Shown here piece after piece: positions 24,839 to 64,000 of a stretch of 64,000 nt of DNA. Every line of letters begins with the position of its first letter. Positions within the stretch are counted from its first letter, which is position 1. The translations under genes were made by a program, and so were the position numbers. Below the pieces are notes generated by a model. It was not told where the DNA came from. It did no database searches and saw only the letters and a list, made by a program, of their open reading frames with translations. This DNA is from Candidatus Woesearchaeota archaeon (GTDB lineage Archaea; Nanobdellota; Nanobdellia; Woesearchaeales; GW2011-AR4): the NCBI GenBank assembly GCA_016181305.1, contig JACOZN010000010.1, positions 32,001 to 96,000 of the forward strand, in the 5' to 3' direction.

Positions 24839-26722
24839 ATGTGCGGCATCTGCGGCTTTAATTTCGAAGACAAAAGGCTTCTGAAAAGCATGGCTGATGA
24901 AATAAGGCACCGGGGCCCAAATGCAGCAGGCTATTTTACCAGTAAAAATGTATCGCTCGGCAGCAGAAGGCTGAGCATAATTGACCTGTCAAAGGCAGGC
25001 AACCAGCCAATCTACAATGAAGACAAGTCCATTGCCCTTGTCTACAACGGGGAGATTTTTAATTTCATTGGGATAAGGGAGGATTTGGGAAAAAAACACC
25101 GATTTATATCAAATACAGATTCTGAAGTCGTAGTGCACGCGTATGAGGAGTACGGCATTGACTGCCTGAGCCATTTCAACGGATTCTGGGGATTTGCATT
25201 GTACGATAGCAAAAGGAAAATTCTTTTTCTTGCAAGGGACAGGCTTGGCATAAAGCCATTGTATTATTACTATGACGGAAAGAAGCTTGTTTTTGCGTCT
25301 GAAATTAAGGCTATATTAAAGGATCCCGGCATCAAAAGAAAAGTCAATTACAAAGCGCTCAGCGACTTCATTACATACAGGTATATTCCGTCTGATTTGA
25401 CAATATTCGACGGCATAAAAAAGCTGAAGCCCGGGCATTATGCATTGCTTGACCTGAAAACCGGAAAGCTGAAGGTTGAAAAGTACTGGGATGTTCCATT
25501 AAAAACCAAAAGCAGGGGCAAAGCTATTGTTGAGAAGGACATCATAAGCCTCTTAAGGGACTCTGTGGAAAAAAGGCTGATAAGCGATGTCCCTCTTGGA
25601 GTTTACCTAAGCGGAGGCATAGACTCTTCAAGCATAGTTGCCATGATGAAATATTTTACTAACGAGATAAGCACCTTCTCGCTTGCATTCGAGCATGACA
25701 AGATAGGCAATGAGCTGGGCTATGCCAAGAAAGTTGCAGAGCATTTCGGAACAAGGCACAAAGAAATTACAATAAGCACGAACATTGTGAAAGACTTGCC
25801 GAAGATTGTGTGGCACCTTGACGAGCCTATGGCAGACCCTGCTGCTGTGCCGGTCTACTATCTGTCGAAAGAGGCGAAAAAGAGCGTGACTGTGATACTG
25901 ACCGGGGACGGCGCTGACGAGCTTTTTGCAGGCTATGACCAGTACAAATTTCTGGCTTTGGGGCATAAGATGAGGTTTTTGCCGCATCCGATCAAGAAAA
26001 TGCTGCCAGCATCTGCAAAGATGATTCCAAAATCCATGCTGGACAAAATCTACAGGTATTCGTCTGCAACAGGCGAGCAGATGTTTGGCAGGATGGGCAG
26101 GATGCTGCTGAGCATCAAAACCAACAAGGCAAAAGCCTATGCAGAGGTGGTTGGTGTTTTTGACGATGATGAAAAAAAAGAACTGCTTAATTTTGATTTT
26201 AGAGATAATTACAATGCAATAAACAGGGGGTTCTTCTCCAAAGGTGATTTTTTAACACAGCTGGCCTATTATGACGTGAAGAATTACCTGGCAGAGGACC
26301 TGCTTATGAAGCCTGACAAGATGTGCATGGCGCACAGCATAGAGGCAAGAGTCCCTTACCTTGACTACAGGCTTGTTGAGTATTCTTTCAGCATACCTTC
26401 CAGTTTAAAGCTCAGGAACAGCAAGACAAAATACATACTGAAAAGTGCGCTGAAAAATTATCTTCCAAAAGATATTATTTACAGGAAAAAGCAGCCGTTC
26501 CAGATGCCACTGGATGAATGGTTTTCAAAAGAACTGAAGAGCTATTTTTTAGACTTGCTTGAAGAGCCAATAAATTCAAAGCTGTTCAACAAAAGATACA
26601 TCAAGAAGGTATTTGACAATTATGAAAGCTCAAAGCTCTATTACGGAAGGCAGCTGTGGAGCCTTGGGATGTTTAACCTTTGGCATAAGATTTTTATTGA
26701 TGGGGAGAAAATCAACGCTTAA
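24839..26722 (+). CDS. asnB: Asparagine synthase (glutamine-hydrolysing) family amidotransferase
   Basis: N-terminal MCGICG, 'HRGP', 'RLSIIDL', 'YNGEIFN', 'LSGGIDSS', 'TGDGADELFAGY', 'EARVPYLD' motifs. Confidence 0.93.
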   Translation: MCGICGFNFEDKRLLKSMADEIRHRGPNAAGYFTSKNVSLGSRRLSIIDLSKAGNQPIYNEDKSIALVYNGEIFNFIGIREDLGKKHRFISNTDSEVVVHAYEEYGIDCLSHFNGFWGFALYDSKRKILFLARDRLGIKPLYYYYDGKKLVFASEIKAILKDPGIKRKVNYKALSDFITYRYIPSDLTIFDGIKKLKPGHYALLDLKTGKLKVEKYWDVPLKTKSRGKAIVEKDIISLLRDSVEKRLISDVPLGVYLSGGIDSSSIVAMMKYFTNEISTFSLAFEHDKIGNELGYAKKVAEHFGTRHKEITISTNIVKDLPKIVWHLDEPMADPAAVPVYYLSKEAKKSVTVILTGDGADELFAGYDQYKFLALGHKMRFLPHPIKKMLPASAKMIPKSMLDKIYRYSSATGEQMFGRMGRMLLSIKTNKAKAYAEVVGVFDDDEKKELLNFDFRDNYNAINRGFFSKGDFLTQLAYYDVKNYLAEDLLMKPDKMCMAHSIEARVPYLDYRLVEYSFSIPSSLKLRNSKTKYILKSALKNYLPKDIIYRKKQPFQMPLDEWFSKELKSYFLDLLEEPINSKLFNKRYIKKVFDNYESSKLYYGRQLWSLGMFNLWHKIFIDGEKINA

Positions 26723-33857: not shown

Positions 33858-34547
33858 CTATTTTTCCCAAAACAATTTTCCTTCAACAAAAGCCTTGACC
33901 AACTTCTTATTTGTCTCCTTATCGCACCCTTCCCTTTCAGGATGCCAAAGAATGCCTGCAATCATGTGCTTTGGATGGTAAAACCCCTCTATAATGCCAT
34001 CATCGGAAACTGCAAAAGGCTTTAATTGCCTTGACAATGTGCTTTTGTCAACGCCCTGCTTGTGGTAGGAGTTCACAACAAATTTCTTACTGCCAAGAAA
34101 TTTTTCAGCTTTTTTGTCCATAATTTGAACATCATGCTTAACGCGCACATGGCTAATGCCTGTTTTTTCCTCAATGTCCTGAACAAGCTTTCCACCGAAA
34201 AAGACGTTGACAAACTGCCCTCCCCTGCATTCCCCAAGCAAAGGCAATTTTCTTTTCAAAGCAATTTCAATAATCTTTTTTTCAGTGGCGTCTCTTTCAT
34301 TTGAAAAATCCCCATTTTTGGGCTTGGCGCCGTAAAGCGCAGGGTTTATGGAATTGCCGCCGCTCAGGATTATTCCCTTTATGGGCATCTCCTTAAAATA
34401 TTTGTCCAGATTCCTGCTTACATTCGGCACAGGAACCAATGCAATGCCGAATTTCTCGTAATACCCGATGTAGTCATTTTCAAGGGCATCTCGGCAAGCG
34501 CCTTTGTCCATTTTCATGCTTCTTTGGGAGATCGCTATGAGCATCAT
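33858..34547 (-). CDS. Class I glutamine amidotransferase / peptidase C26; putative gamma-glutamyl-CDP-amidate hydrolase (Cj1417-like)
   Basis: 'IILSGGN', nucleophile 'GECRGGQ', 'VNSYH', 'WHPER' (Cys-His-Glu triad). Confidence 0.8.
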   Translation of the reverse strand: MMLIAISQRSMKMDKGACRDALENDYIGYYEKFGIALVPVPNVSRNLDKYFKEMPIKGIILSGGNSINPALYGAKPKNGDFSNERDATEKKIIEIALKRKLPLLGECRGGQFVNVFFGGKLVQDIEEKTGISHVRVKHDVQIMDKKAEKFLGSKKFVVNSYHKQGVDKSTLSRQLKPFAVSDDGIIEGFYHPKHMIAGILWHPEREGCDKETNKKLVKAFVEGKLFWEK

Positions 34548-37531
34548 GCACCCCTGATTGGCTCTATTTTATGCGCCTTGCAGTCAAGATGCACGGAATC
34601 GGCATTGACCAAATTGTCAAATATTACTCCGCAGCCGATTGCTGCAGGAATCCCGAATTCAGCGCACCTTATTGACATATGCGAAGCCACTCCGCCGTAT
34701 TTTGTGATTAAGCCTGCAATGTTTCTTGTAAATACCCAGTCATAGCCCGGGTCGCCGCTCTCGATAAGGACAACCTTGTTTTCTATGTCACCAACGCTTT
34801 TTCCGTCAAACTTGCTTAGGTTTACCAGCTGGGCATTTACATTCTTTGCAGTTATGTAGTTGGGCCTTGGTGCATAGTAAGTAACAACATCCAAGTCACT
34901 TTCCGAGAAAATTATAGGCGGCAGCTCAATTTTGTTATTCAGCTCCCTTTCTTTTCTCCTTGAAGTTATTGCCCCTTTCCATTTCCCGGTAAGCTCCTCC
35001 CTGCCAAGATTTGCATTGCTGAACAAGGCATCAGCATCCAGCATGGCAAGCTCCTGCCTTGTAAAGCCCATTTCCTCTCCGGCAAGCGCTATAAGCTCGA
35101 GCGCGTCGCTCAGGTTTTTTGTGAACTGGAATTTTGAGAGCTCTCTTGCCTCCAAAGCTGATTTTGTGAATTCAAGCAGCTGCATTGCATCAAATTTCAG
35201 GCCTTCCTGCTTCAGGATTTTTGTAATTCTCTCATAAGCATCATTGTCTACTATAAAAGAATCTGAATGATCTTCATGCAAATCAAAGCTTAGGGTTTTC
35301 AATAGCCCGGGGTTTGACTCGTACCTTGGGCTTGTAATGTCGTAAGAGCCAGGCCTTAAGTGGTAGTATTTCTTTACGAAGTCGTCATGATTCATCGCGC
35401 CTGAGCCAAGCAGCCTGAAGTCCCTGCTCATTTCCTTGGCGACAGTGCTTATGGAGTTCATGAAATTGTCATAGAAGACAGAGCCTATTATGCTTTTGCG
35501 CACAAGGCTTTTCAATATTATTTTGCCGACAAATGCCAGCCTTGCCAGCCTTGAAAACTCAACTGTGCCCTTTTTCCTGCAGTCGCCAAGCAGGAATTTT
35601 GCATTGCCAAGCATGGCTTCAACTGAATTGCCATGGGCTGAATTTTTCCTTATCCTTTCCCTGTTTGATTCCATTTCCTTGAGGCGCTTCAAATCCTCCC
35701 GGATTGATTCTTTGGAATGCACCACAAGGCTGTTGGTTAGCTTTATCAGTGCTTGCTTAAGCTCTTCAATATCCTCTCTTGCAAAGCCTGATTTTGAAAG
35801 CTCCTCTGACCTTTCGCCAAACGCCATGTCATAGCATGTAAACAAAACCTCAAACTCCACCTTGTCCTGCATATCCGGATTTTTCTCGAGCTTGTCGAGA
35901 TAAAAGTCAACGAGCTTCTCGCGCAGCTTCTGCGACAATGCAGCAGGCACGAATGAGTTAAAAGTGTTCCTAACGTCGATATAAGGCTTGTTGCCGAGCA
36001 AAACAACAAGCTTTGCCGGGTTTACATTATAATATCCCTGCGATGTCCTTGCCTCGTGCCATGCGCTGCCTGTTATGAGATAGTCATAAAGCGAATAGTC
36101 AAGATAATTCGGGTTGTCGCCTATTATTTCAGCAGGATTCCAGTCCGGCATGTCGGCAAGGATTGTCCTTTTCCCGGCAAGATGGGGCTTTCTGGCTGAA
36201 AGCTCGGCGAACCTAGCCTTTAGCAAGTCAATCCTGCTTTTGACTTCAGCATCGTCAGTCTCGTATTTGTTGCTTGTTGTCAATGGCCTTACCTGAAAGA
36301 TTATCACTTCGTTTTTGTTGTTTACTGCAAACTCTATGTCAAGCCCTATATTCGGGGCTATGCCTTCTATCTCTTTTACAGCTGCCAGCAGGTTTTGCAT
36401 GCTGCCAGGCAGCGAGCTTATTTCAGCAAACCTTGATATTTTCATTGTATTGCTCTCGACGCCTTTTGTGACTGTATCTGATTTTCCGGTTGAGCTGTCA
36501 TAATTGACTACATAATAAGGAGAATTTTTTTCCAAGGATCTTGTAAGTATCACGCCGCTCATTACAATATTCTCTGTCTGCTGCTGAATAAGGACTTGGT
36601 TGAATGAATTCTCGGATGACTTGTGCTTGTACGAGCTTATTACTTTCTTTACAGCAGCCTCGATCTCCTTTGAATCTGCTGAGCCAACATTAAGCTCTGT
36701 TGCAAAATAGCCTGCCATTGAGCTGTCAAGAGTATCTTCGTTGACAGCAGAGCTCCTGACTGCGATTTTGAAAGGCTGGAATTCCTCTTTTACTCTTTTG
36801 AGCAGTTCGTCTTTTTTGTTCTTCCAGTCTGAGACAGAAAACACATATGATTTTTCAATCCTTGATTTTTTAAGCAACGGCTTGAGCGCAGTCAATGTGT
36901 CTGCTTTTGTCGAGATTATAACCTTGTTGCCTTTTTGGTACTCCTTGTCAAGCTTGACTTCCCCCTTTATCAATGACTCAAAGTGGATAACATCCTTCAG
37001 CTTGTCCTTGCTTTCTATAAGCTCTGTTATGATTTTATATGTTGAAAGCCTTCCATAATATGGATGTTGTATGACTTTGCCGCCTATTTGGCTTATGTAT
37101 TCAGAGCCGTGCACATAGCTTAAGTCAGAGCCGTGGACAAGTGTTATTTCTGCATCAGGGAACTCCTCGTGTATCTTCTTGAGGTTCTCTGTTGGGTCTC
37201 TTGAGTCCTGCACCATAACCCTGTCAACGCAGTTGAGGCTTGAAATTATGGATTTTCTTTCCTGAAGATTGGCAATCGGCTTTGCCCTGTATTCCTCCAC
37301 AGCCTTGTCAGTCAGCACACCAACTATATTATAGTCAGAAATAGACTTGGCAAACTGGATTGAATGCAGATGCCCGTAATGAAACAAATCTGCTGCAACT
37401 CCGCTGTATGCTATTCTCTTTATAGATGCTCTTTTTACCTCTACTATATCGCCTTCCCTGATGCTTGAGCCTGTAGGAATTGTAATGCACAGCTGGTTAT
37501 TGGATTTGTTTTTCCATACTATCTTTTTCAT
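34544..37531 (-). CDS. AbrB-like + HxGH cytidylyltransferase + PEP-utiliser-family kinase fusion; putative L-glutamine kinase (Cj1418-like)
   Basis: N-terminal 'NNQLCITIP...IREGDIVEV', 'ADLFHYGH', ATP-grasp 'AVRSSAVNED' and 'LDIEFA...IFQVRP', central 'MPDWNPAEIIG', C-terminal phospho-His 'TKYGGVASHMSIRCAEFGIPAAIG'. No PEP/pyruvate-binding barrel. Confidence 0.85.
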   Translation of the reverse strand: MKKIVWKNKSNNQLCITIPTGSSIREGDIVEVKRASIKRIAYSGVAADLFHYGHLHSIQFAKSISDYNIVGVLTDKAVEEYRAKPIANLQERKSIISSLNCVDRVMVQDSRDPTENLKKIHEEFPDAEITLVHGSDLSYVHGSEYISQIGGKVIQHPYYGRLSTYKIITELIESKDKLKDVIHFESLIKGEVKLDKEYQKGNKVIISTKADTLTALKPLLKKSRIEKSYVFSVSDWKNKKDELLKRVKEEFQPFKIAVRSSAVNEDTLDSSMAGYFATELNVGSADSKEIEAAVKKVISSYKHKSSENSFNQVLIQQQTENIVMSGVILTRSLEKNSPYYVVNYDSSTGKSDTVTKGVESNTMKISRFAEISSLPGSMQNLLAAVKEIEGIAPNIGLDIEFAVNNKNEVIIFQVRPLTTSNKYETDDAEVKSRIDLLKARFAELSARKPHLAGKRTILADMPDWNPAEIIGDNPNYLDYSLYDYLITGSAWHEARTSQGYYNVNPAKLVVLLGNKPYIDVRNTFNSFVPAALSQKLREKLVDFYLDKLEKNPDMQDKVEFEVLFTCYDMAFGERSEELSKSGFAREDIEELKQALIKLTNSLVVHSKESIREDLKRLKEMESNRERIRKNSAHGNSVEAMLGNAKFLLGDCRKKGTVEFSRLARLAFVGKIILKSLVRKSIIGSVFYDNFMNSISTVAKEMSRDFRLLGSGAMNHDDFVKKYYHLRPGSYDITSPRYESNPGLLKTLSFDLHEDHSDSFIVDNDAYERITKILKQEGLKFDAMQLLEFTKSALEARELSKFQFTKNLSDALELIALAGEEMGFTRQELAMLDADALFSNANLGREELTGKWKGAITSRRKERELNNKIELPPIIFSESDLDVVTYYAPRPNYITAKNVNAQLVNLSKFDGKSVGDIENKVVLIESGDPGYDWVFTRNIAGLITKYGGVASHMSIRCAEFGIPAAIGCGVIFDNLVNADSVHLDCKAHKIEPIRGA

Positions 37532-38939: not shown

Positions 38940-40109
38940 TTATCTGTTTTTGTTTAAAAAATCAATTATGAACCTGGCGCCTGCGGCTGAAGAGCTGCCA
39001 AGGTTGAAAACGTGCTTTTTTCTTGCTTTTATAATTTCTTTCCTGTACTTAGCTTTTTCTTTTATCAGCTTTGCGGCTATTGAATCAATCTTGCCAACAT
39101 TATCCGGATGCAAAACAAACCCAATTTTGTTCCTTATTTTGATGTCGATAGGCTCTGTGCTGAATTTTCTGTATTCGGGGTTGTTTATTTTTATGGGAGT
39201 GTCTATGAACAGCACAGGCCTTTCTGTCCCGAAAGCATACTCATATACAACCCCTGACCAGTCGCTTATCATTATATCGGAGCTGTAAAAATTTTCAAGC
39301 GACGAGACATTCTCTTCTGCCATAAAATTTTTGAAATTCCTGAATTCATCATAAAGCGCGTCCAGAAATTCGGGATATTTTTTCCTTGTCATAGGGTGAG
39401 GCCTCAGAATCACTTCATAGTTTGACTCGAGCAGTTTTCTTACCAGTTTGCTGCCGCAGATGTCCAGCATGCTTGTCCTTTCCCCCCACGGGCCCCAGCC
39501 AGGCGCAACAAGTATCCTGGCCTTGAACTTTGTTTTCCTTTTTTTGCCTGCGCTTTTCCATTTTTTGTAGTCCCTATGTATTTTGTCCAGCCTGTAATAG
39601 CCGAATTTTACGATTTTTCTTTCAGGCAGCTTGTAAAGCTCCTCCTCATTCCTCAGCTCCCTGATATGATGGGGGCCGACTGCAAACATTATGTCATAGT
39701 AAAAAAGCCCTCCATGCCTTATTACATGGAAATAGCTGCCGATGTTGTGGAACAAATAAGCATGGCTGGCTCCCCTGACGGACTTTTTGATATGGAACTG
39801 GTTCAAGTCAGGCATTGTCATCAGCACAAGCTTTGAGTCCAGAAGCAGCATGAAAAATCCAAGCAAATGCCTTATGTAGAATGCATTAACGTTCTTTCTT
39901 TTGCTGTGCAGCATAGGGTCATTGCACTCTGATGTGACATAGCACAGCTTCATGTTGTGCCTGCCTGCAAGCTCGCCTATAATCCCCTCAAAAAAGGTGT
40001 AGTATGAGCTGTCTTCGGAATAAACCACAACATCCCTCTGGGCTTTGTCTAATTTGAAGAACCTGCGAAATTCCCTGAATTCCTTTGCAAACAGAGTCCA
40101 TTCTTTCAT
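38940..40109 (-). CDS. CDP-glycerol:glycerophosphotransferase (TagF/TagB)-like protein
   Basis: 'MTMPDL', 'YLFHNIGS', 'FGYYRLD', 'ILVAPGW', 'LRPHP', 'MISDWSGVVYEYAF..ERPVLFID' motifs. Confidence 0.8.
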   Translation of the reverse strand: MKEWTLFAKEFREFRRFFKLDKAQRDVVVYSEDSSYYTFFEGIIGELAGRHNMKLCYVTSECNDPMLHSKRKNVNAFYIRHLLGFFMLLLDSKLVLMTMPDLNQFHIKKSVRGASHAYLFHNIGSYFHVIRHGGLFYYDIMFAVGPHHIRELRNEEELYKLPERKIVKFGYYRLDKIHRDYKKWKSAGKKRKTKFKARILVAPGWGPWGERTSMLDICGSKLVRKLLESNYEVILRPHPMTRKKYPEFLDALYDEFRNFKNFMAEENVSSLENFYSSDIMISDWSGVVYEYAFGTERPVLFIDTPIKINNPEYRKFSTEPIDIKIRNKIGFVLHPDNVGKIDSIAAKLIKEKAKYRKEIIKARKKHVFNLGSSSAAGARFIIDFLNKNR

Positions 40110-40122
40110 AATAATTGGTTAA

Positions 40123-42006
40123 TTAATTTTGTTCGATTTTCTCGAGCTCTTTCTCCAAAAATCTTCTTTTTGTTATATTTACGTTATAAAGATTTAGTTT
40201 CTCCTGCGGGTCAGCATTGATATTAAACAGGGAGGAGTACATCCTGTTTTTCGGATCTTCCGGCTTTATCAGGAGAAGCTTCCACCCATCGTCAAAAATT
40301 GCCTGCTGCACGCTCTCATTCAGTTTTGGCCTTCCATAAAGCTCAGAAATCACGTAACTGCCGACAGGGCTTTTGTTAGTCTTAATCAGGGGGAGCAGGC
40401 TGGCGCTATCCACATTCCCAGGCGATTCGGTATTTGCCACGTCAAGCACTGTTGAAAATATGTCAATTGTGCTGACAGTCTCCTTTATCCTTTTTGGAGG
40501 CAGTTTGGCAGGGTAATAAATCAGCAAAGGAACGTGCACGTTCTCGTAGTATAAAGTATGGTGCATAAAGCCGCCGTGGTCGTAGAACTCCTCCCCGTGG
40601 TCTGCCGTGATTATTATCATTGTCTTGTCCTTCAAGCCCAGCTGGTCAAGCTTGCCAATCAGCTTTCCTATGCTGCTGTCAACAGAGTAGATTTCAGCAT
40701 CATAAAGCGCTTTTGCCATCTCTATTGTTGAGTTCGGAATCGGCAGGTACCTTTCAATTGCGTAAGAAGGCTTTGGCCTGTAAACAGTTGCAAGCTGTAT
40801 GTCTTTGTTTGTTTTCCAGACGTCATAAAGTGTTATCCTTTCATTGGAGAACATGCTCCTGTATTGCAGGCCGCGGTTGTAGGGATGATGGGGCTCGATG
40901 TAATGAACCCACAAAAAGAATTTGTTGTTTGAATTCTTCTCCAGAAACCTGAAAGCATCTCGGTTTATTTCCTCGGCTTTCCTCTCGCCGTCAGTCCTGA
41001 AAATGAAAGTGCGCATTCCGGGCATATAGTCAAGCAGCCTCTTCATGCTGAACTTATTGTAAGTCTGCGTGTATTCAAAAAAATCAAGCCTGTCCCTGTA
41101 TTCCATAAAGCCCTGTCCAGCCCCGTACTTTGACTTGATGTAAACAGCGCTAATCATGCCTGTTGTCACATAGCCCTTATCTTTCAGCAGTTCGCTGATA
41201 AGAAGCTCTTTTTCATTAATCACCGGATTCCTTAAGGTAGTATTATGGCGGTACTGGTATCTGCCGGTTAAAACAGACGCCATTGAAGTTTGGGTGTCCG
41301 GGCCGGGAGCTATGGCATTGTCAAATACAACAGAATGTTCCGCCAATTTGTTGAGATTTGGCGTGGTGTTCAGTTGATAGCCATAAAGAGAAAGGTGGTC
41401 AGCCCTTGTCGCGTCTATTGTTATCAGGATTATATTTGAGTAGTCTTTAAGCCTGCTGTCTGATTTGTAACCCGGGCTGTAATGCAGCATGTACACGTCA
41501 ATAAAAAGCGACACTGCAGCAAATACAAACATTGCAAAGATATAGTTTCCCAAAAACTTTTTTACTCTTGGCTTTTTCAGTTGCAGGAGAATCTGTGACA
41601 AAACATTCTTTCCTTTTAGGAAAATGGCAAAGCAGAATATCGCTGAAACTGCAACAACAAGCAGGCTGAGGCTGAACGATGCAGGCTCTATTATGCTCAA
41701 AGGGCTCAGCAGGAAGTTGTTTACAAGCACCAGGCCATAGAACATCAAAATAAACGATATTGTGCCAGCAACATAAGCATTCCTGGCTTGTTCCTGCTTT
41801 AGGGGTTTTCCGAACAACCAAACAAAAAATCCAAAAGCCAGAAAGAACAGCACAGACGCAGCAATCGATATAAACAATGCCTGGTAAAGCTCGAACCATT
41901 CGAAGCTCCATGAGAATATTCTGGCCAGTACATCAACTGTGCCGATTAAAGAGCCGGCCAGCAATCCTGCTGCGGCTGCGAGCTTTAAATGCCTTGTCAA
42001 TTTCAT
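40123..42006 (-). CDS. Membrane-bound sulfatase-fold (alkaline phosphatase superfamily) transferase, LtaS/EptA-like architecture
   Basis: About 5 N-terminal TM helices, 'NIILITIDATRADH', 'TTPNL', 'PDTQTSMASVLTG', 'WVHYIEPHHPY', 'ITADHGEEF' motifs. Confidence 0.82.
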   Translation of the reverse strand: MKLTRHLKLAAAAGLLAGSLIGTVDVLARIFSWSFEWFELYQALFISIAASVLFFLAFGFFVWLFGKPLKQEQARNAYVAGTISFILMFYGLVLVNNFLLSPLSIIEPASFSLSLLVVAVSAIFCFAIFLKGKNVLSQILLQLKKPRVKKFLGNYIFAMFVFAAVSLFIDVYMLHYSPGYKSDSRLKDYSNIILITIDATRADHLSLYGYQLNTTPNLNKLAEHSVVFDNAIAPGPDTQTSMASVLTGRYQYRHNTTLRNPVINEKELLISELLKDKGYVTTGMISAVYIKSKYGAGQGFMEYRDRLDFFEYTQTYNKFSMKRLLDYMPGMRTFIFRTDGERKAEEINRDAFRFLEKNSNNKFFLWVHYIEPHHPYNRGLQYRSMFSNERITLYDVWKTNKDIQLATVYRPKPSYAIERYLPIPNSTIEMAKALYDAEIYSVDSSIGKLIGKLDQLGLKDKTMIIITADHGEEFYDHGGFMHHTLYYENVHVPLLIYYPAKLPPKRIKETVSTIDIFSTVLDVANTESPGNVDSASLLPLIKTNKSPVGSYVISELYGRPKLNESVQQAIFDDGWKLLLIKPEDPKNRMYSSLFNINADPQEKLNLYNVNITKRRFLEKELEKIEQN

Positions 42007-57227: not shown

Positions 57228-58349
57228 TTATTGCATACCCTGAAGCTGCTCCCACAACTGACTTTCTATCGCGGGCTCTTTCCCAGCGAGATTTTTGGCT
57301 TCGGACTTGTCTTTCTCAAGATTGTAAAGCTCTTTCTTTTTACTTGTCTCGTTGTATATTAGCTTCCAATTGTTTGTGCGCACAGCCTTAACGTTATGCT
57401 TTTCCGGAGAAGGTGTTGGTCCGCCCAAGCCGCCTGTTTCTGAGTATGCAATCCTGTCCTCTTCTTTTCCGTGAATAATATCCAAAAATGATTTTCCCTG
57501 AACCGGCTTGTAGCCGTTTTTTTCTATTATATCAAGAATTTCAAGTATGGTTGGCATTAAGTCAATGCTCCTTATCTGGGAGTTTATTATTTTGCCTTTT
57601 GGGAACTGCTTCCCTATTGCATAAAGAAAGCATCTTATTGTGTAATCATAAAGATACACTCCATATGCCTTTTCGCCAATCCTGTCTCCCACACTCACTC
57701 CATGGTCCGTGAAAATAAAAATTATTGAATCGTCCCATAAGCCAAGCTCTTTTATTCTGCCTAGAATTATCTTGAGGTAGTCGGCGCTTGACCGCAATGA
57801 GTTTAGATAATTCTTAAGATTTGCTTCCTTGTTCTTAAAGTATTCCTCATCAAAATCAGTGTATTTCTTGATTACATTTTTGAGAAGCTCGGGGTGAATC
57901 TTGACATAATCCAGGTAGAGAAAAAAAGGCTGCTTTGGCTTTATCTGGTTGAGGACTTCCAAGTGCCTTGCGGTTAAGTCATCTTTGAACTCATCGTAAA
58001 CTCTTACCTTGTCAAAGCCCTGGGTTGGAAGCACATTTTCATTGTGAATGTCTGTTTCTGTGCAGTAGCCATTGCCTTTGAGGTACTGCGCCAGCGTGAA
58101 GCACCCCTTCTTGTCAAAGCCGAAGCTTTTGTAGTAGCCGTTGACGCCGTTTGAATTGCCGTACATGCCCGAGAATGTGGCGTGCAAAGAAGCGATAGTA
58201 TAAGGAGCGTAAGTAATCATTGACGGGAAGAACGTTGATTCTTTTTTCAGCTCCTCGTAGATTGGAACTTTGCCTATCAGGTCATGCCTGGCGCCATCTA
58301 CCAGAATCATAATTACGTTCGGTTTTTTCTTTTTGAAGAGGCTCAGCAT
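57228..58349 (-). CDS. Soluble sulfatase-fold (alkaline phosphatase superfamily) enzyme
   Basis: 'PNVIMILVDGARHD', 'APYTIASLHATFSG', 'FTDHG', 'WKLIY', 'LYNLEKD' motifs. No TM helix. Confidence 0.85.
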   Translation of the reverse strand: MLSLFKKKKPNVIMILVDGARHDLIGKVPIYEELKKESTFFPSMITYAPYTIASLHATFSGMYGNSNGVNGYYKSFGFDKKGCFTLAQYLKGNGYCTETDIHNENVLPTQGFDKVRVYDEFKDDLTARHLEVLNQIKPKQPFFLYLDYVKIHPELLKNVIKKYTDFDEEYFKNKEANLKNYLNSLRSSADYLKIILGRIKELGLWDDSIIFIFTDHGVSVGDRIGEKAYGVYLYDYTIRCFLYAIGKQFPKGKIINSQIRSIDLMPTILEILDIIEKNGYKPVQGKSFLDIIHGKEEDRIAYSETGGLGGPTPSPEKHNVKAVRTNNWKLIYNETSKKKELYNLEKDKSEAKNLAGKEPAIESQLWEQLQGMQ

Positions 58350-58362
58350 TTTAATTGAGGCT

Positions 58363-59739
58363 TTATTCCATATAGCCCAGCTCTCTCAGCAGCTTTTTTG
58401 ATTTATCATCCATGCTTGACAAGTCAGCATCACCTTCATTGCTTTGCTGCTTTAAAAAATCCAGCATCTTTTGTTTCATTTCAGATGCAACTTCTTTTTC
58501 TTTATTTATCAGATTATTTGTCTCATTGGGGTCGTCCTTTAGGTTGTAAAGCTCAAAAATATCGTTTTGTGGGTGCGGAATGTAGATGAGTTTCCAGTCT
58601 CCTATTATCATCGTACGCCATTTTCCCCTTATTCCCGGGAAGAATATTCTCTTATGCCCCTTGAAATGCTCTTCAAGGCTCTCGGCAAAGACAAACTCCC
58701 TGCCTTTTAGGGTTTCTCCCTTAATTAAAGGCAGCAGGCTCATGCCGTCCACCCTGTCAATCAAAGGCACGTTGAGCATGTCCATTATCGTGGGCATTAT
58801 GTCGATGTTCTGCACTCTTTGCTTTATAATCTTGCCCTTTGGAACCAGTTTTGGATGCCTGAATATTAAAGGTATCCTCAAGCTCGGCTCATAGAGGCTT
58901 GCAGCATGCTGGAAGTAAAAATCATGCTCGCCGAAATTCTCGCCATGGTCCGATGTAAGAATGACTAAAGTTTCATCTTCAAGCCCAGTCTCCTTTAACG
59001 TGTCCAGGATTCTGCCAATCTGGGTGTCAACATATTTTATAGCTCCGTCATAATGCGCTATTGCATGCTCCATCTCCTCTTTTGGAAACTTGACATGCCC
59101 GAACAAGATGTCGCCTCTTGCCAGTTTCCCATCGGCTAATGTGTTGAAGTCGTGGCTGCCTTTATAGCCGGAATCAAACATATGTTCATAGGGCTTTGGA
59201 GGCCAGTAAGGCCAGTGCAGGTCTATGGGATGGTGGCATAAAAAGAATTTTTCATTGGAGTGCTTTTTTATCCACCTTATCGCTATTTGAGTATGCTGCT
59301 CAGTCAGGCCAAGAAAATTCTTGGGATTTAATATTTTATAAATGCCCCTTTTGATTTTGTTTTCAATTTTCCACGTGAGCGGATTGAACTCCTGAAACCC
59401 TTTTTTCATGGCTGGCTCGCTCAGAACGTCTACATCAAGGTATGCATTCCTGAAGCCGTGGCTTTGAAGTATTTCAGGCAATGTTGTTACAGACTCATTG
59501 AACTTGTTGTTGGAGACAAGCCTTATGCCATGGTTATGCGGATAGACTCCTGTGAATGCGGACAATATGGATGAATTTGTCCATGGAAAAGGGCAATACG
59601 CGTTCGAGAAGCTCGTGCCTTCTTTTGCCAGCCTGTCTATGTTCGGGCTTGTAGCCCTTGCATAGCCGTTTGCGCTTAAATGGTCAGGGCGCAGTGCATC
59701 CACTATAAACATGATTATGTTCATTTTGCCTAAGGGCAT
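58363..59739 (-). CDS. Soluble sulfatase-fold (alkaline phosphatase superfamily) enzyme
   Basis: 'NIIMFIVDALRPDH', 'TSPNID', 'FPWTNSSILSAFTG', 'DLHWPY', 'LTSDHGENF', 'LYNLKDDP' motifs. No TM helix. Confidence 0.87.
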   Translation of the reverse strand: MPLGKMNIIMFIVDALRPDHLSANGYARATSPNIDRLAKEGTSFSNAYCPFPWTNSSILSAFTGVYPHNHGIRLVSNNKFNESVTTLPEILQSHGFRNAYLDVDVLSEPAMKKGFQEFNPLTWKIENKIKRGIYKILNPKNFLGLTEQHTQIAIRWIKKHSNEKFFLCHHPIDLHWPYWPPKPYEHMFDSGYKGSHDFNTLADGKLARGDILFGHVKFPKEEMEHAIAHYDGAIKYVDTQIGRILDTLKETGLEDETLVILTSDHGENFGEHDFYFQHAASLYEPSLRIPLIFRHPKLVPKGKIIKQRVQNIDIMPTIMDMLNVPLIDRVDGMSLLPLIKGETLKGREFVFAESLEEHFKGHKRIFFPGIRGKWRTMIIGDWKLIYIPHPQNDIFELYNLKDDPNETNNLINKEKEVASEMKQKMLDFLKQQSNEGDADLSSMDDKSKKLLRELGYME

Positions 59740-59775
59740 ATTCACTAGTTTAAAAATCTATATTAAGCATGCAAA

Positions 59776-60639
59776 TCAGCCGGTTCTGCGATTCTTTAAT
59801 GCCGCCAATACTTTATAGGGAACTTTAAGTTTTCCGAGAACCTGCCCTTCCCTTCCGTGAAAGTCAGAGCCGCCTGTCTCGAGAAGCCTGTATTTTCCGG
59901 CTATATTCCGGAACTTTTTGTTGATTTTGCTGCTTTGCGCAAAGCCTGTGTGGTATCTTGAGCTTTCATAATTGTAGTATGTCTCCAGCCCGTCTCCGCC
60001 GTTTTTTATAAAGTATTTTATGAATTCTTCAATGCTGAAATTGCTGTACACGCCGGGATGAGATATTAAAGCAAAGCCTTTTGCAGAGTGTATTGCATTT
60101 ATCGCCTGCTTTATGCCTATCTTGTTTTTTCTCTCAGCATAAGCCTTTTTGCCCACTGCAAGGTACTTATCAAAAATCTTATCTATAGAGTTTACTTTAT
60201 CGGGGTTGTTCTTTAGGATTGCTTTGGCAATATGCGGCCTTCCTATCTCGCCTTTTGCGAGTTTCTTGACTTCTTGGTACGTGATTTTGAAGCCCAGTTT
60301 TTGGAATTTTTTAATTATGTCTTTTTTTTGGCTTTCCCTGTATTGCTGGGCTTTTCTCAACAGGGAATTTAAGGATTTGTTTTTATGGTTGATAAACAAT
60401 CCGAGAATATGTGTATCCACAAATCCTTTGTCATCGCAGCTTATCTCAACACCCGGAATAACCTCTATGCCTTTTCCCTTGGCGGCGCTTAAAGCCTCGT
60501 CTATGCCGCCTACAGAGTCATGGTCTGTTATTGCTATTGCTTTCAGCTTTTTCCTCAAAGCCAGCCTGACAAGCCCTTTCGGGGTTAATGCCCCGTCAGA
60601 AGCTGTTGTGTGGCACTGGAGGTCTATGTTTTTTGGCAT
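59776..60639 (-). CDS. PHP-domain phosphoesterase (TrpH/YciV-like)
   Basis: 'DLQCHTTASDG', 'AITDHD', 'GVEISC', 'HILG', 'GRPHIA', 'SHP', 'TGGSDFHG' motifs. Confidence 0.88.
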   Translation of the reverse strand: MPKNIDLQCHTTASDGALTPKGLVRLALRKKLKAIAITDHDSVGGIDEALSAAKGKGIEVIPGVEISCDDKGFVDTHILGLFINHKNKSLNSLLRKAQQYRESQKKDIIKKFQKLGFKITYQEVKKLAKGEIGRPHIAKAILKNNPDKVNSIDKIFDKYLAVGKKAYAERKNKIGIKQAINAIHSAKGFALISHPGVYSNFSIEEFIKYFIKNGGDGLETYYNYESSRYHTGFAQSSKINKKFRNIAGKYRLLETGGSDFHGREGQVLGKLKVPYKVLAALKNRRTG

Positions 60640-60658
60640 TTTTATTTTTGATATTATT

Positions 60659-62035
60659 TTAATAAGCCGGCGCAAATACAGCCGAGTAAGCTGCTTTTTT
60701 GCCGCAATGCACGCATTTGCCTGACTTTATCGGACGAACAACCCTAACTGAATTTTTGTTTGCCTTTTCCCTTATCTGCTTTGCGCAGCCTATACTGCCG
60801 CACCATAATGCCTCTATAAACCCTTTCTTTCCGGAAGCAATTTTCTCAAATTCCTGCCATGAGCCTACTTTTGAGATATGGCTGCTGTGGAATTCTTTGG
60901 CTTTCCTGCAGAGGTTGTCCTGAATTGAATTTAATGTTTTTTGTATTTCTTTTAATAATAAATTTTTACTTGTCTTGGTTTTTTCCAATGTGTCCCTTCT
61001 AATTAATGTAAAGTTATTTTTTTCAGATAAAACTATGATCGGGGCGCCCATCAAAATCCAATAGCCAATTTTTTCATTATTGCTTTTTTTTGACTCATCA
61101 TTAAAAACCCTGATTCCATTATTTTTTAATAAATCAAACATTTTTTCATTGAAATCCGCAAAAACAACTTGATAAGGCGCGATTTTCGGCGGAATTACCA
61201 GCCCTTTGTTGTCGCCATGAAGCATGGCTAATGCCCCGATAACCCTCGTTGTTATCCCGTTGCAGGCTTGATAGGCAAACTCGCCTTTTCCGCTTTTATT
61301 CCTGAATTTTATGCTGAATGCCTTGCTGAAATTCTGCCCTAGATAATGCGATGTTGCAGTCTGGACTGACTTGAAGTCAGGCATCAGCGATTCAAGGGCA
61401 AGCGTGTATTCAGCGCCCGGGAACATCCTATGCTCCGGCTTAAAGCCGCTTATTACCGGCATTGCAAGGCAATTTTCATGCAAATCCCTGTAGACATCCA
61501 GTATCTTCCTGACATATTCGTCTGCCTCTTTTTTTGTGGAATGGACTGAATGGCTTTCCTGCCACAGGAACTCGTTGCCTCTCAATAAAGGCATATTCGG
61601 CTTGAACGACTCCCATCTCATCACAGAGCAGTATTGGTTTATGCACAGAGGAAGATGCTTTTCCTCCTTGACCCATTTTGCTAGGGATTCATAGATTATT
61701 GCCTCTGAGGTTGGCCTTATCACATATTCCTCCTCAAGAGTGCTGTGCCCTGCCTTGGACACAACAAGAACTTCCCTGAAGAAATCCTCAAAGTGCTTTG
61801 TCTGCTTCTTGAAGGACTTCAATGGAATGAGCGCAGGGAAGTAATATTCTTTAAATCCCAACGGCATTAATTTATTGTCTAAATAGCTCTTTATCAGGCT
61901 CCATATCATAAGGCAGTATTCATGATAAACGACGCAGCCTTTCACTGCAGAAAAATCAACAAGCTTGGAAGCTTCTATAACTTCATGGTACCACTTCACA
62001 AAGTCTTCTTCCTTATTGGTTTTGACAGAAATCAT
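60659..62035 (-). CDS. proS: Prolyl-tRNA synthetase, archaeal/eukaryotic type, divergent in the anticodon-binding domain
   Basis: 'IRPTSE', 'VMRWE', 'EFLWQESH', 'QTATSHYLGQNF', 'HGDNKGLVIPP', C-terminal Zn Cys residues and terminal Tyr ('FAPAY'). Confidence 0.85.
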   Translation of the reverse strand: MISVKTNKEEDFVKWYHEVIEASKLVDFSAVKGCVVYHEYCLMIWSLIKSYLDNKLMPLGFKEYYFPALIPLKSFKKQTKHFEDFFREVLVVSKAGHSTLEEEYVIRPTSEAIIYESLAKWVKEEKHLPLCINQYCSVMRWESFKPNMPLLRGNEFLWQESHSVHSTKKEADEYVRKILDVYRDLHENCLAMPVISGFKPEHRMFPGAEYTLALESLMPDFKSVQTATSHYLGQNFSKAFSIKFRNKSGKGEFAYQACNGITTRVIGALAMLHGDNKGLVIPPKIAPYQVVFADFNEKMFDLLKNNGIRVFNDESKKSNNEKIGYWILMGAPIIVLSEKNNFTLIRRDTLEKTKTSKNLLLKEIQKTLNSIQDNLCRKAKEFHSSHISKVGSWQEFEKIASGKKGFIEALWCGSIGCAKQIREKANKNSVRVVRPIKSGKCVHCGKKAAYSAVFAPAY

Positions 62036-62044
62036 ATTGGCGAA

Positions 62045-63118
62045 TCAGCGCTGAACCTTTATATATTCTTCACCCCTTCTTGTTGTGTAGCTTTCAAAAT
62101 AGCCTATTACAATCCTGTAGTATTCTTCCCCGCTTTTCAGCGGAGTAACCTTTTCCAGGATGCCTGCTGCAACTATGCTTTCCCCCTTGAAAGCCTGCAG
62201 CATGAAATCCCTCGCGTATGTTACAACTTTCTTTACATTGACATCAGGACCCTGGATTACTCTTGCATTTTCCAGTTCATAGTAGCCCGGGCGCACAACT
62301 CCATTGTAATCATCCTTGACTTTTCCTTTTACGGTAGCCATTCCCATGGGGGTGTATTTTTCATCACCCCACTTGACGGATAATTCATCAGGATTCTCAA
62401 CGCCGAAAACCGAGACAACTGTCTCTCCAAAATAGACGTCAATAAATTTCCTCCTTGAATGCCAGATAAACTCGTCCTCTGAAATGAACAGTCCGGCATT
62501 GTAAGAGGCGAAGTATTTCTTCCACTCCTCAAGGCTTTTCCATCTCAGCCACGGGTGCTTTGCATTTTGTATGAAATTTATATATTTCCAGTAATTATCC
62601 TTTCCAAAAACTATTATATCAATATCCGACCTTCCATAAGTATAAGTGCCAAGCAATGTGGAGTTGGTTACTCCCAAGTCAGAGGCTTTCAAGCCGCTTT
62701 CCAAAACTAAGCTTAAAAATCCATGCGCCCTCTTCATGTAATCGTCCATCTCAGAGCCTTTCATCGCAAGGATTCTTTTCACGCCGTCTTTTGGATTGGG
62801 AAGCTTTGCTATCTTGTTTCTTGGAACCCCCATAAACCACGTTTTATGCAGTGGGCTGTCATACATGTAGTCCGGGTACGCTTTTCTGAAGTCATCTATG
62901 TACGACTTCAGCCTTTTCTCGTCAACTGCCCAATAGTCAAACCTTCTCACGTCGCTGCCATGTATGTTTCTTTCCTGGAATCCCGAGCAGTCTATCTTAT
63001 GCCTTGGAATGTATTTTGGCTTTGCTATCACAAAGCCGTCAGGATGGTCGTTTGCATAGCTCTTCAGCTGCAGTCCATCATCGCTCCACATTATCATGGA
63101 CTCGTAAAAGTGCGTCAT
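62045..63118 (-). CDS. Predicted archaeal Pol-beta-superfamily nucleotidyltransferase (COG1665-like)
   Basis: 'HPDGFVIAKPKYIP', 'GVTNSTLLG...SDIDIIVFG' (G-S...DxD), C-terminal OB-like 'QAFKGESIVAAGILEKV'. Confidence 0.7.
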   Translation of the reverse strand: MTHFYESMIMWSDDGLQLKSYANDHPDGFVIAKPKYIPRHKIDCSGFQERNIHGSDVRRFDYWAVDEKRLKSYIDDFRKAYPDYMYDSPLHKTWFMGVPRNKIAKLPNPKDGVKRILAMKGSEMDDYMKRAHGFLSLVLESGLKASDLGVTNSTLLGTYTYGRSDIDIIVFGKDNYWKYINFIQNAKHPWLRWKSLEEWKKYFASYNAGLFISEDEFIWHSRRKFIDVYFGETVVSVFGVENPDELSVKWGDEKYTPMGMATVKGKVKDDYNGVVRPGYYELENARVIQGPDVNVKKVVTYARDFMLQAFKGESIVAAGILEKVTPLKSGEEYYRIVIGYFESYTTRRGEEYIKVQR

Positions 63119-63999
63119 TTTGCCTCCTGTGAATTTGCTACAAATTTGCTTTTACCCATATATTCCAGAAACTCCCTTACATTGTGAATTTCAAGAAGGT
63201 TTGTCCTTTTTGACTTGCTGTGGAAGATGGACGCTATTATGGCTATCTGGTCCGTTTTTCCTATAAATCCCTTTTTTAGCGCCTTCATAATGACTTTCTT
63301 TTTGTCGTTGTTTGATATGTCATCAGTGTCCATATCAACATGCAGCGGGCATATGCCCCATAACAGATGAAGCTGCCTGAAAATTTTCATTCTTGAGGTT
63401 GCCGCTATGGTTTTGCATTTCAGCCTTTTGCCCGATATCATCCTTGCAGAATACCCCCCCGATGTCATTATAAGCAAGGCGTCTATGCACAAAATCTTCT
63501 CCAGCTCTGAAACTGCATCGCCTATGAATCTCGTCAAGTCATGGCTTGCGCTCCTGGAAGCTTCTTCAACTGCAATCTCAGCATTCTTTATAATTCTGGA
63601 AAGTGTTTCGACTGATTTGAGCGGGAATTTCCCAGCTGAGGTTTCATCCGACAGCATTATGCAGGATGCACCTTCAATAACGGCATTTGAAATGTCGTAT
63701 ACCTCCGGCTGCATCAATGGTTCTCCTGAAACCGAGGAGTTAAGAATATTGCCCGATATTATGACGGGCTTTCCATAAGCGCTGCACTTATTGATGACTT
63801 CTTTCTGGAATTTCGGTAGGGCTTCAATGCCAGCGCCTGCAAAACTGCTCCTGTCGAAAACAATTCCGTAAGCCTCATCAATTATCTCTTGATTATTTTT
63901 CAGCGATTTCCTGCCAATTTTTGCTATTACCTTGATTTTGTCGCCTATGACTTGACTTATATCGCTATAGCCCAGAAGCCTGCTGACTTGGCGTATGTC
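63115..63999 (-). CDS. pyk: Pyruvate kinase-like protein, C-terminal part, with degenerate active-site motifs (5' end outside the window)
   Basis: The frame is open to the window edge. Manual translation gives 'KVIAKIG...GIVFDRSSF...FQKEVINKC..YGKPVIISGNILNS...DISNAVIEGASCIMLSDETSAGKFP', followed by a PK C-terminal domain. Confidence 0.78.
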   Translation of the reverse strand, partial: DIRQVSRLLGYSDISQVIGDKIKVIAKIGRKSLKNNQEIIDEAYGIVFDRSSFAGAGIEALPKFQKEVINKCSAYGKPVIISGNILNSSVSGEPLMQPEVYDISNAVIEGASCIMLSDETSAGKFPLKSVETLSRIIKNAEIAVEEASRSASHDLTRFIGDAVSELEKILCIDALLIMTSGGYSARMISGKRLKCKTIAATSRMKIFRQLHLLWGICPLHVDMDTDDISNNDKKKVIMKALKKGFIGKTDQIAIIASIFHSKSKRTNLLEIHNVREFLEYMGKSKFVANSQEAK

Positions 64000-64000
64000 C

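Follow-up and report, generated by a model that had tools for sequence, protein, structure and literature searches.

The window analysed here, a 64,000-nt stretch of contig JACOZN010000010.1 from a Candidatus Woesearchaeota archaeon (source genome G000), encodes on its minus strand, at 60659..62035, a protein of 458 amino acids (aa), P0001, that resembles prolyl-tRNA synthetase (ProRS). The span includes the stop codon, and the assignment was based on the open reading frame, its translation and matches to Pfam and NCBIfam. P0001 is a non-housekeeping, selectively maintained ProRS paralog, and it is probably an adenylate-forming ligase that serves glycan decoration. The original prediction, made from the letters of the sequence, had proposed a paralog with an intact proline-activation core and an eroded anticodon-recognition motif, and this reading held: P0001 falls into a clade of its own, whose members coexist with a canonical ProRS in the genomes G015, G052 and G055.

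P0001 was identified as a homologue of the archaeal/eukaryal-type (E-type) ProRS with its three-domain architecture. Pfam matched tRNA-synt_2b (PF00587, 6e-22), ProRS-C_1 (PF09180, 7e-11) and, weakly, HGTP_anticodon (PF03129, 2e-5, 25 bits), and the ProRS equivalog model TIGR00408 scored 438.4 bits (437.6 by genome search) against a cut-off of 437. The closest solved structures were the eukaryal and T. thermophilus ProRS (E about 1e-89), the best PDB matches spanning 5e-90 to 3e-73.

Alignments were made of P0001 with 20 ProRS from its own genus and order and with 75 ProRS from databases. The class II catalytic domain (residues 1–284; 61184..62035, minus strand), supported by PF00587, invariant columns and a dN/dS of 0.06, holds RPTSE, the motif 2 RWE, FLWQE, TSHYLG, ACNG and the motif 3 TTR; with the terminal Tyr, every catalytic motif that had been described as retained is present. 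Motif 2 and its loop (residues 140–162; 61550..61618, minus strand) read RWESFKPNMPLLRGNEFLWQESH, the canonical form being RWE-FKxxKPFLRTREFLWQEGH. The clade consensus, RWEsfKpNmPL.RgNEFLWQESHS (capitals, at least 90%), is one residue longer than the canonical motif and carries N in place of R. In class II enzymes, contact with the acceptor end or acceptor stem is made by the motif 2 loop (PMC12152171). Just ahead of motif 3, ACNG replaces TSWG at residues 257–260 (61256..61267, minus strand). The alignments confirmed this previously noted change and showed the loss of Trp to be clade-wide, all paralogs reading Q(A/S/T)(C/S)(N/H/S/A)G where canonical enzymes read T(S/C)WG. Other swaps adjacent to the pocket in P0001, GTSH to ATSH and EGH to ESH, are conserved within the clade, and the residues F, E and V of GF.PEV, which match the A76/proline pocket, are preserved. 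In human ProRS, the neighbouring residues Gly1274, Gly1238 and Trp1169 form a sub-pocket (PMC8346053).

The anticodon-binding domain (ABD; residues 285–375; 60911..61183, minus strand) is AT-rich and, as had been suspected, shortened, with 91 aa vs. 107–110 aa in canonical enzymes. The canonical TPGWKFNEWELKGVPxRIEIGPRD aligned to SNNEKIGYWILMGAPIIVLSEKNN in P0001, with WILMGAPIIVLSEKNN replacing WELKGVPxRIEIGPRD at residues 326–341 (61013..61060, minus strand). About 13 residues past the first ABD strand are deleted, as are five more in the RIEIGP loop. The Glu, Arg, Glu and Asp residues of the motif are said to read G35/G36. These two bases are the primary identity elements for archaeal/eukaryal E-type ProRS (PMC11229370; PMC12152171).

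The C-terminal Zn-binding domain (residues 376–458; 60662..60910, minus strand; PF09180) ends in ...FAPAY, and C412, C417, C441, C444 and the terminal Y458 are invariant in the clade. Its net charge is +12, compared with −2 to +8 in the aligned ProRS of the genus and order. The whole paralog carries a net charge of +18/+19 vs. +1 to +6 in same-genus ProRS, and the clade averages about +17 vs. +1.5 for canonical enzymes. This strong basicity suggests a polyanionic partner.

A homologue search of 5.8 billion proteins yielded 32 relatives of P0001 at 55–86% identity and about 10 more at 42–48%, all 415–465 aa long and most of them missing the PF03129 match. At least 42 metagenomic proteins form one clade (SH-aLRT 100, stem 0.51) that is separate from the canonical clade of the genus, and the clade is backed independently of branch lengths because its members share indels. 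The anticodon motif, WE(L/M)KGVPxR(I/V)E(I/V)GP(R/K)D, and the Trp of TSWG are absent in P0001 and in 41 of 41 full-length clade members, and the changes in P0001 are therefore not due to chance. ABD length in the clade is 73–94 aa, below the canonical range. Its alignment contains 71 invariant columns, including R107–E111, R140/W141/E142, T228/S229/H230, R264, the four Cys and Y458.

The gene is under purifying selection. The dN/dS value between P0001 and its G015 counterpart was 0.135 for the whole gene, 0.06 for the core, 0.16 for the ABD and 0.29 for the C-terminal domain, and dN was 0.23 in the ABD and 0.03 in the core. We rejected a pseudogene on the basis of the whole-gene dN/dS and of an open frame in every clade member. 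The G+C content is 0.295–0.30 at 60900–61199 and about 0.42–0.48 in the remainder of the gene, in agreement with the AT-richness first remarked on in the ABD. An assembly chimera was considered as the origin of this part and rejected, since Logan contigs of the probable source run reproduced 60876–61983 without any difference. Exact pieces of the ProRS-like gene were also present in a second groundwater study. No RNA data set was listed among the sequencing runs matching the gene.

The source genome (1.07 Mb, 22 contigs) is 78% complete. A second, canonical proS, which the original prediction expected alongside a paralog, was not found in assembled G000; it was found in G015, G052 and G055. 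A ProRS match was obtained in 37 of the 42 other genus genomes, and 36 of these 37 carry a canonical ProRS or a contig-end fragment of one. The exception is G041, whose only match is a contig-end, C-terminal fragment of the variant. Full-length canonical ProRS of the genus are 40–45% identical to P0001, and wherever their motif region could be read the canonical motif is intact; the housekeeping enzymes of close relatives thus do not share the substitutions. Besides G000, the variant occurs in the genus in G015 (86% identity), G052 (76%) and G041 (71%), and G015 and G052 each hold both the variant and a canonical ProRS. An Aenigmarchaeota metagenome-assembled genome (MAG), G055, encodes a canonical ProRS of 576 bits and a clade member of 271.7 bits against TIGR00408, the latter below the cut-off and matching the model only at 8–287, the catalytic core. 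We rejected contamination as the origin of the additional ProRS of G015, since the same pair was found in G052 and in the Aenigmarchaeota MAG.

The variant locus is collinear in G000 and G015. By contrast, the first 20 kb of the G015 contig with the canonical proS (G015:C7) have no counterpart anywhere in G000; this region also encodes FttA/aCPSF1, PRPP synthase and a YbaK-like editing protein. FttA/aCPSF1 is conserved across archaea, and no FttA orthologue was found in G000. Because G000 is 78% complete and the whole FttA/PRPP synthase/proS region is missing, this is an assembly gap and not a gene loss; the canonical proS region is unassembled in G000. The editing gene, a free-standing YbaK/ProX-like domain (L041, G015:C7, 3149–3586, minus strand), lies about 660 nt from the start of the G015 canonical proS, and no such gene is near the paralog. 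In G000, four tRNA genes without introns and about 10 intron-bearing ones were predicted by ARAGORN, 12 exceeded the Rfam cut-off, and many have long introns; such scarcity is usual for archaeal MAGs that are incomplete and whose tRNA genes are atypical. A tRNA-Pro (CGG) gene of G000 lies at C10:7738–7843.

The paralog is linked to one partner gene. In the window, P0121 (62045..63118, minus strand; 357 aa), assigned by fold matches as a putative Pol-beta nucleotidyltransferase with an OB fold (NTase-OB), ends 9 nt before the start of the ProRS-like gene. An NTase-OB gene adjoins the paralog in all seven loci read: the window, G015, G052, L046/L047, L048, L051 and the P0040 locus. A further 12–13 pairs of ProRS-like and P0121 proteins share a contig, as judged by identically long contigs. 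The start/stop overlap or 9-nt gap between neighbours suggests translational coupling. The deep clade members P0040, P0038 (L046/L047), P0036 (L048) and that of L051 likewise have an adjacent P0121 homologue, with PF01663 genes close by; they are surrounded by genes for glycosyltransferases (GTs), a flippase, STT3, DegT and B12-radical-SAM proteins, and G052 is alike. All loci read are embedded among GTs, DegT, epimerases, a Wzx flippase, STT3 and AsnB-like and TagF-like genes. The neighbourhood survey that had been proposed for this clade thus revealed glycan islands with nucleotide-handling enzymes alongside. A FemAB/Acetyltransf_6-like gene was seen at the edge of one locus only.

P0121 has 77 homologues, with a precomputed Pfam domain in only one, distant member (PF01909); those with taxon names come from Aenigmarchaeota, Diapherotrites and Woesearchaeota. 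Its AF2 model has a pLDDT of 94. Residues 120–240 form a putative Pol-beta NTase domain (VIA-align) that matched TUT7, Pol X and Trf4 at Z 6.9–7.5, the closest folds being the RNA terminal uridylyl/adenylyl transferases TUT7, TUT1, Trf4 and MEAT1 (Z 6.4–7.5). Residues 254–357 form an OB fold that matched SSB, RPA, MCM-N and the anticodon domains of AspRS/AsnRS at Z 6.5–8.5; values below 8 are also reached between common folds. In the NTase signature G..S...SD.D, G149, S153, S164 and D165 do not vary at all, and D167 reaches at least 90% conservation. A weak PF01909 match was obtained for 32 of the 42 members (best 1.2e-6); P0121 itself, at E 0.019, fell under the gathering score. Foldseek found no PDB structure similar to P0121 at E ≤ 0.001, the weaker matches being to OB folds and poly(A) polymerases. 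The N-terminal 118 residues, a beta domain that was folded alone (pLDDT 84.5), matched only Sm/SH3-like structures at Z ≤ 3.7, too weakly for a fold assignment. The NTase-OB profile had no match in NCBIfam, and its only match among PDB sequences was a 14-bit one to AF0614, a putative NTase. Four fusion proteins from Pacearchaeota and Hodarchaeota (P0202–P0205, 817–1080 aa) join a PF01663 domain of the alkaline phosphatase (AP) family to NTase-OB; the 1080-aa forms have an extra middle part of about 260 aa.

The wider cassette was surveyed in 401 sampled genomes of the order, one carrier, G358, being unpublished and used for the count only. P0121 homologues occurred in 15 of the 401 genomes, spread over 14 genera, and all 14 carriers other than G000 have at least two P0121-family matches, mostly as adjacent tandem genes. 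Two forms of cassette were distinguished. Type A (10 loci, including L049, L050 and L056–L063) comprises an ORF of about 80 aa, AP-462, NTase-OB-A, NTase-OB-B, a 197-aa protein, a PHP/CysQ-like enzyme and an APS-kinase-like protein, the last encoded in six of the 10 loci. The 197-aa protein has CxxC and EHLHIKIFPFR motifs and is HIT-like by motif only. In both NTase-OB-B copies read, P0200 and P0201, SDIN stands against SDID (D to N). The 359-aa and 570-aa proteins after NTase-OB at L049 and L050 were examined as cryptic aminoacyl-tRNA synthetase (aaRS) cores and rejected as such; each is a second NTase-OB paralog.

In type B, which includes the window, the ProRS-like gene occupies the slot of NTase-OB-B and the HIT-like protein, and no APS-kinase-like gene was found near type B loci. 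This slot swap hints at nucleotide-linked chemistry. A PHP or Inositol_P/CysQ-like gene was present in 14 of 16 cassettes read. The cassette is a patchy, exchangeable part of glycan islands, since even the same-genus genome G044 carries type A, and it extends across DPANN and some Asgard genomes.

Within the window, P0001 is part of a minus-strand series of tightly spaced or overlapping genes in the order pyruvate-kinase-like (PK-like), P0121, ProRS-like, PHP and two AP/sulfatase-fold genes. The operon head is the PK-like gene (63115..64000, continuing past the window end to G000:C15:96518, minus strand; 467 aa in all; PK and PK_C matches), which overlaps P0121 by 4 nt and scores 154 vs. 306 bits, well under the NCBIfam PK cut-offs. 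A PHP-family phosphoesterase (59776..60675, minus strand; 299 aa; PF02811) overlaps the ProRS-like stop by 17 nt and had sub-threshold NCBIfam matches to RNase RNM (172 bits) and to 3',5'-nucleoside bisphosphate phosphatase (163 bits). Its G015 counterpart matched the window PHP in two pieces in different frames (L040, G015:C11, 1535–2390), a frameshift or sequencing error. The AP/sulfatase-fold proteins have 460 aa (58363..59745, minus strand; PF00884 2.7e-52, PF01663 2e-16) and 373 aa (57228..58349, minus strand; PF00884 4e-26), the latter being encoded by the last tightly spaced operon gene. Over 57228–59745, both carry Thr at the aligned nucleophile position, within PWTNSSILSAFTG and PYTIASLHATFSG.

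The flanks on either side belong to a sugar island that exceeds 50 kb and includes methyltransferases, epimerases, two DegT aminotransferases, GT2/GT4, a Wzx flippase, PMT_2 and UDP-GlcNAc 2-epimerase. Two AsnB-type glutamine amidotransferases of the island (24839–26722, plus strand; G000:C15:98491–100293, minus strand) probably act in the amidation of sugars and not as asparagine synthases. In a 995-aa fusion protein (34544–37531, minus strand), a cytidylyltransferase-like domain is joined to PPDK_N and to a PEP-utilizers mobile domain; its gene adjoins a TagF-like glycerophosphotransferase gene (38940–40109), beside which a 627-aa sulfatase-fold protein is encoded (40123–42006). This arrangement recalls the kinase plus cytidylyltransferase logic of activated phospho-donor pathways. 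No tRNA gene was found in the window or near any paralog locus, and an Rfam scan of the window gave no match at gathering thresholds.

The putative activity can be outlined from the retained and lost parts of P0001. With the TxE loop, the arginines of motifs 2 and 3, the Zn domain and the terminal Tyr all kept, ATP and an amino acid could be bound and an aminoacyl-adenylate formed; the helix and loop that bear the anticodon motif in the class IIa ABD have been lost. Proline, or a related imino or amino acid, would be activated as the adenylate and passed to an acceptor of the glycan pathway other than tRNA(Pro), and the outcome would be an aminoacyl decoration on a surface polymer or on a nucleotide-linked precursor. 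The cassette partners are predicted to handle adenine nucleotides, comprising NPP-type AP-family proteins and a pAp-phosphatase-like PHP or CysQ-like enzyme. One detailed version, which we consider doubtful as it stands, is that NTase-OB adenylylates a glycan, polyol-phosphate or lipid-linked precursor, that the terminal 5'-AMP so created mimics A76 of tRNA, that the ProRS-like protein esterifies proline or an analogue onto the AMP ribose or the polymer, and that the PHP/CysQ-like and NPP-type proteins recycle the nucleotide. If true, parts of the translation machinery would make up an analogue of bacterial D-alanylation, in which an archaeal surface polymer is aminoacylated by an aaRS-type enzyme without any tRNA.

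Several points weigh against a role in glycan decoration. The full E-type architecture is kept and the TIGR00408 score lies 1.4 bits over the cut-off, so that residual tRNA(Pro) charging may persist. The high positive charge and the OB fold of the partner also fit unspecific RNA binding. That the SW of TSWG lines the proline pocket is presumed here. The variant is the sole ProRS found in the G000 assembly, where a canonical proS is argued only from the relatives and the assembly gap. Neither an APS kinase (only a 20-bit sub-threshold match) nor an ATP sulfurylase was detected in G000. Neither AP-462 nor AP-514 of the other cassettes is orthologous to the AP-family genes of the window, and G000 yielded no orthologue of either.

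Four other explanations were weighed against glycan decoration. P0001 could charge an RNA acceptor, be it tRNA(Pro), another tRNA or a small RNA, without reading the anticodon, a course the original prediction had also allowed for; the OB-fold partner would bind RNA in trans like Trbp111 or Arc1p, and the aminoacyl-RNA would feed a glycan or lipid transferase. The strongly basic paralog keeps the E-type architecture and the A76/proline pocket residues, its partner is closest to nucleic-acid-binding OB folds and to RNA terminal transferases, ProRSx and the ABD-less CysRS* offer precedents (PMC9437257), and a Fem-like gene stands at one locus edge. However, that gene occurs in one locus only, all paralog loci are free of nearby tRNA and Rfam RNA genes, the fold Z scores below 8 are in the common-fold range, and the neighbouring enzymes act on sugars and nucleotides instead of RNA. 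Moreover, since the cassettes of most genomes have no aaRS-like gene, NTase-OB is not there to serve an aaRS. We regard an RNA acceptor, the strongest of the rivals, as unlikely. More improbable still is a second genuine tRNA(Pro) ProRS, kept as a duplicate resistant to stress or to an inhibitor, comparable to IleRS2, SerRS2 or BtProRS2. The narrowly exceeded TIGR00408 cut-off, the intact catalytic motifs under purifying selection and the frequency of duplicated auxiliary aaRS (PMC9437257) would fit such an enzyme, but the anticodon motif, the main E-type identity reader, is deleted and variable in the clade, and deeper members fall far under the cut-off (271.7 bits, positions 8–287 only). The residues adjacent to the pocket are altered clade-wide, the linkage to NTase-OB in glycan islands is invariable and does not extend to translation genes, and the YbaK-like editing gene stands near the canonical proS of G015, not near the paralog.

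That P0001 is the only housekeeping ProRS of the organism, its eroded domain being a trait of reduced DPANN genomes, is scarcely credible. The single ProRS match in assembled G000 fits this explanation; against it, other genus members keep the canonical motif, the two closest variant-bearing relatives also hold a canonical copy, and G000 is incomplete and without the region in which G015 encodes the canonical proS, FttA and PRPP synthase. We give almost no credence to a catalytically silent scaffold or regulatory subunit of NTase-OB that replaces the degenerate second NTase-OB. P0001 does occupy the slot of a probably inactive NTase-OB paralog (SDIN vs. SDID), but the Arg residues of motifs 2 and 3, the TxE loop, TSH and the terminal Tyr are invariant throughout a deep clade, which, together with the core dN/dS of 0.06, is a pattern typical of a working active site.

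The adenylate-forming ligase proposed here can be placed among known systems. P0001 shares its architecture, class II motifs, Zn domain and terminal Tyr with the E-type ProRS (TIGR00408; T. thermophilus 1H4Q, M. thermautotrophicus 1NJ1) and differs from it in the short, motif-less ABD, in ACNG, in the additional residue of the motif 2 loop, in a charge of +18 and in the glycan-island cassette. ProRSx of Streptomyces, the only ProRS paralog in a 2022 review, remains a tRNA synthetase (PMC9437257). Like P0001, it is a duplicated ProRS with an altered tRNA-recognition part and a housekeeping enzyme alongside; unlike P0001, it is of bacterial type, with a functional ABD re-tuned to the Ala anticodon and coupled to its own tRNA(ProA) (PMC9437257), whereas the P0001 clade has a deleted ABD motif and no linked tRNA gene.

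aaRS paralogs that no longer bind tRNA serve as ligases, joining amino acids to acceptors of other kinds (PMC9437257). MshC (CysRS-like, transferring Cys onto GlcN-Ins), the SerRS-like amino acid:carrier-protein ligases, AsnA and PoxA/EpmA resemble P0001 in a kept core, a lost or degenerate tRNA- or anticodon-binding part and a pathway context (PMC9437257). None of them is ProRS-derived and most have shed the tRNA-binding domain, whereas P0001 keeps a shrunken ABD as a linker to its C-terminal domain. The D-alanylation of teichoic acids by DltA/DltC is a functional analogy only, in which an amino acid is activated with ATP and used to decorate an anionic polymer at the surface; the sugar island of the window holds a TagF-like glycerophosphotransferase and LtaS-like sulfatase-fold proteins. 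DltA is an ANL-family enzyme that works with a carrier protein and has no homology to P0001, and no carrier protein was recognised at the window locus. PAPS-type and Campylobacter MeOPN-type pathways combine an NTase, an APS-kinase homologue, a transferase and a pAp phosphatase. Type A cassettes are similar to them in their NTase, APS-kinase-like, PHP/CysQ-like and AP-family members, but neither an aaRS homologue nor a Pol-beta NTase plus OB protein takes part in any of these known pathways. No description of the ProRS-like clade or of the NTase-OB family was found; in databases, the ProRS-like proteins are named 'proline--tRNA ligase' (e.g. a Nanoarchaeota record) and their partners 'hypothetical protein' or 'predicted nucleotidyltransferase'.

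Repurposed aaRS paralogs such as MshC, PoxA, the amino acid:carrier-protein ligases and AsnA each revealed new chemistry. The clade described here is a natural experiment in which an E-type ProRS has been stripped of anticodon recognition, and it defines, within a wider cassette, a conserved unannotated two-gene unit of NTase-OB and a ProRS-like protein. Under its present name, 'proline--tRNA ligase', the paralog can hide a missing housekeeping proS when completeness and metabolism are called for reduced archaeal genomes.

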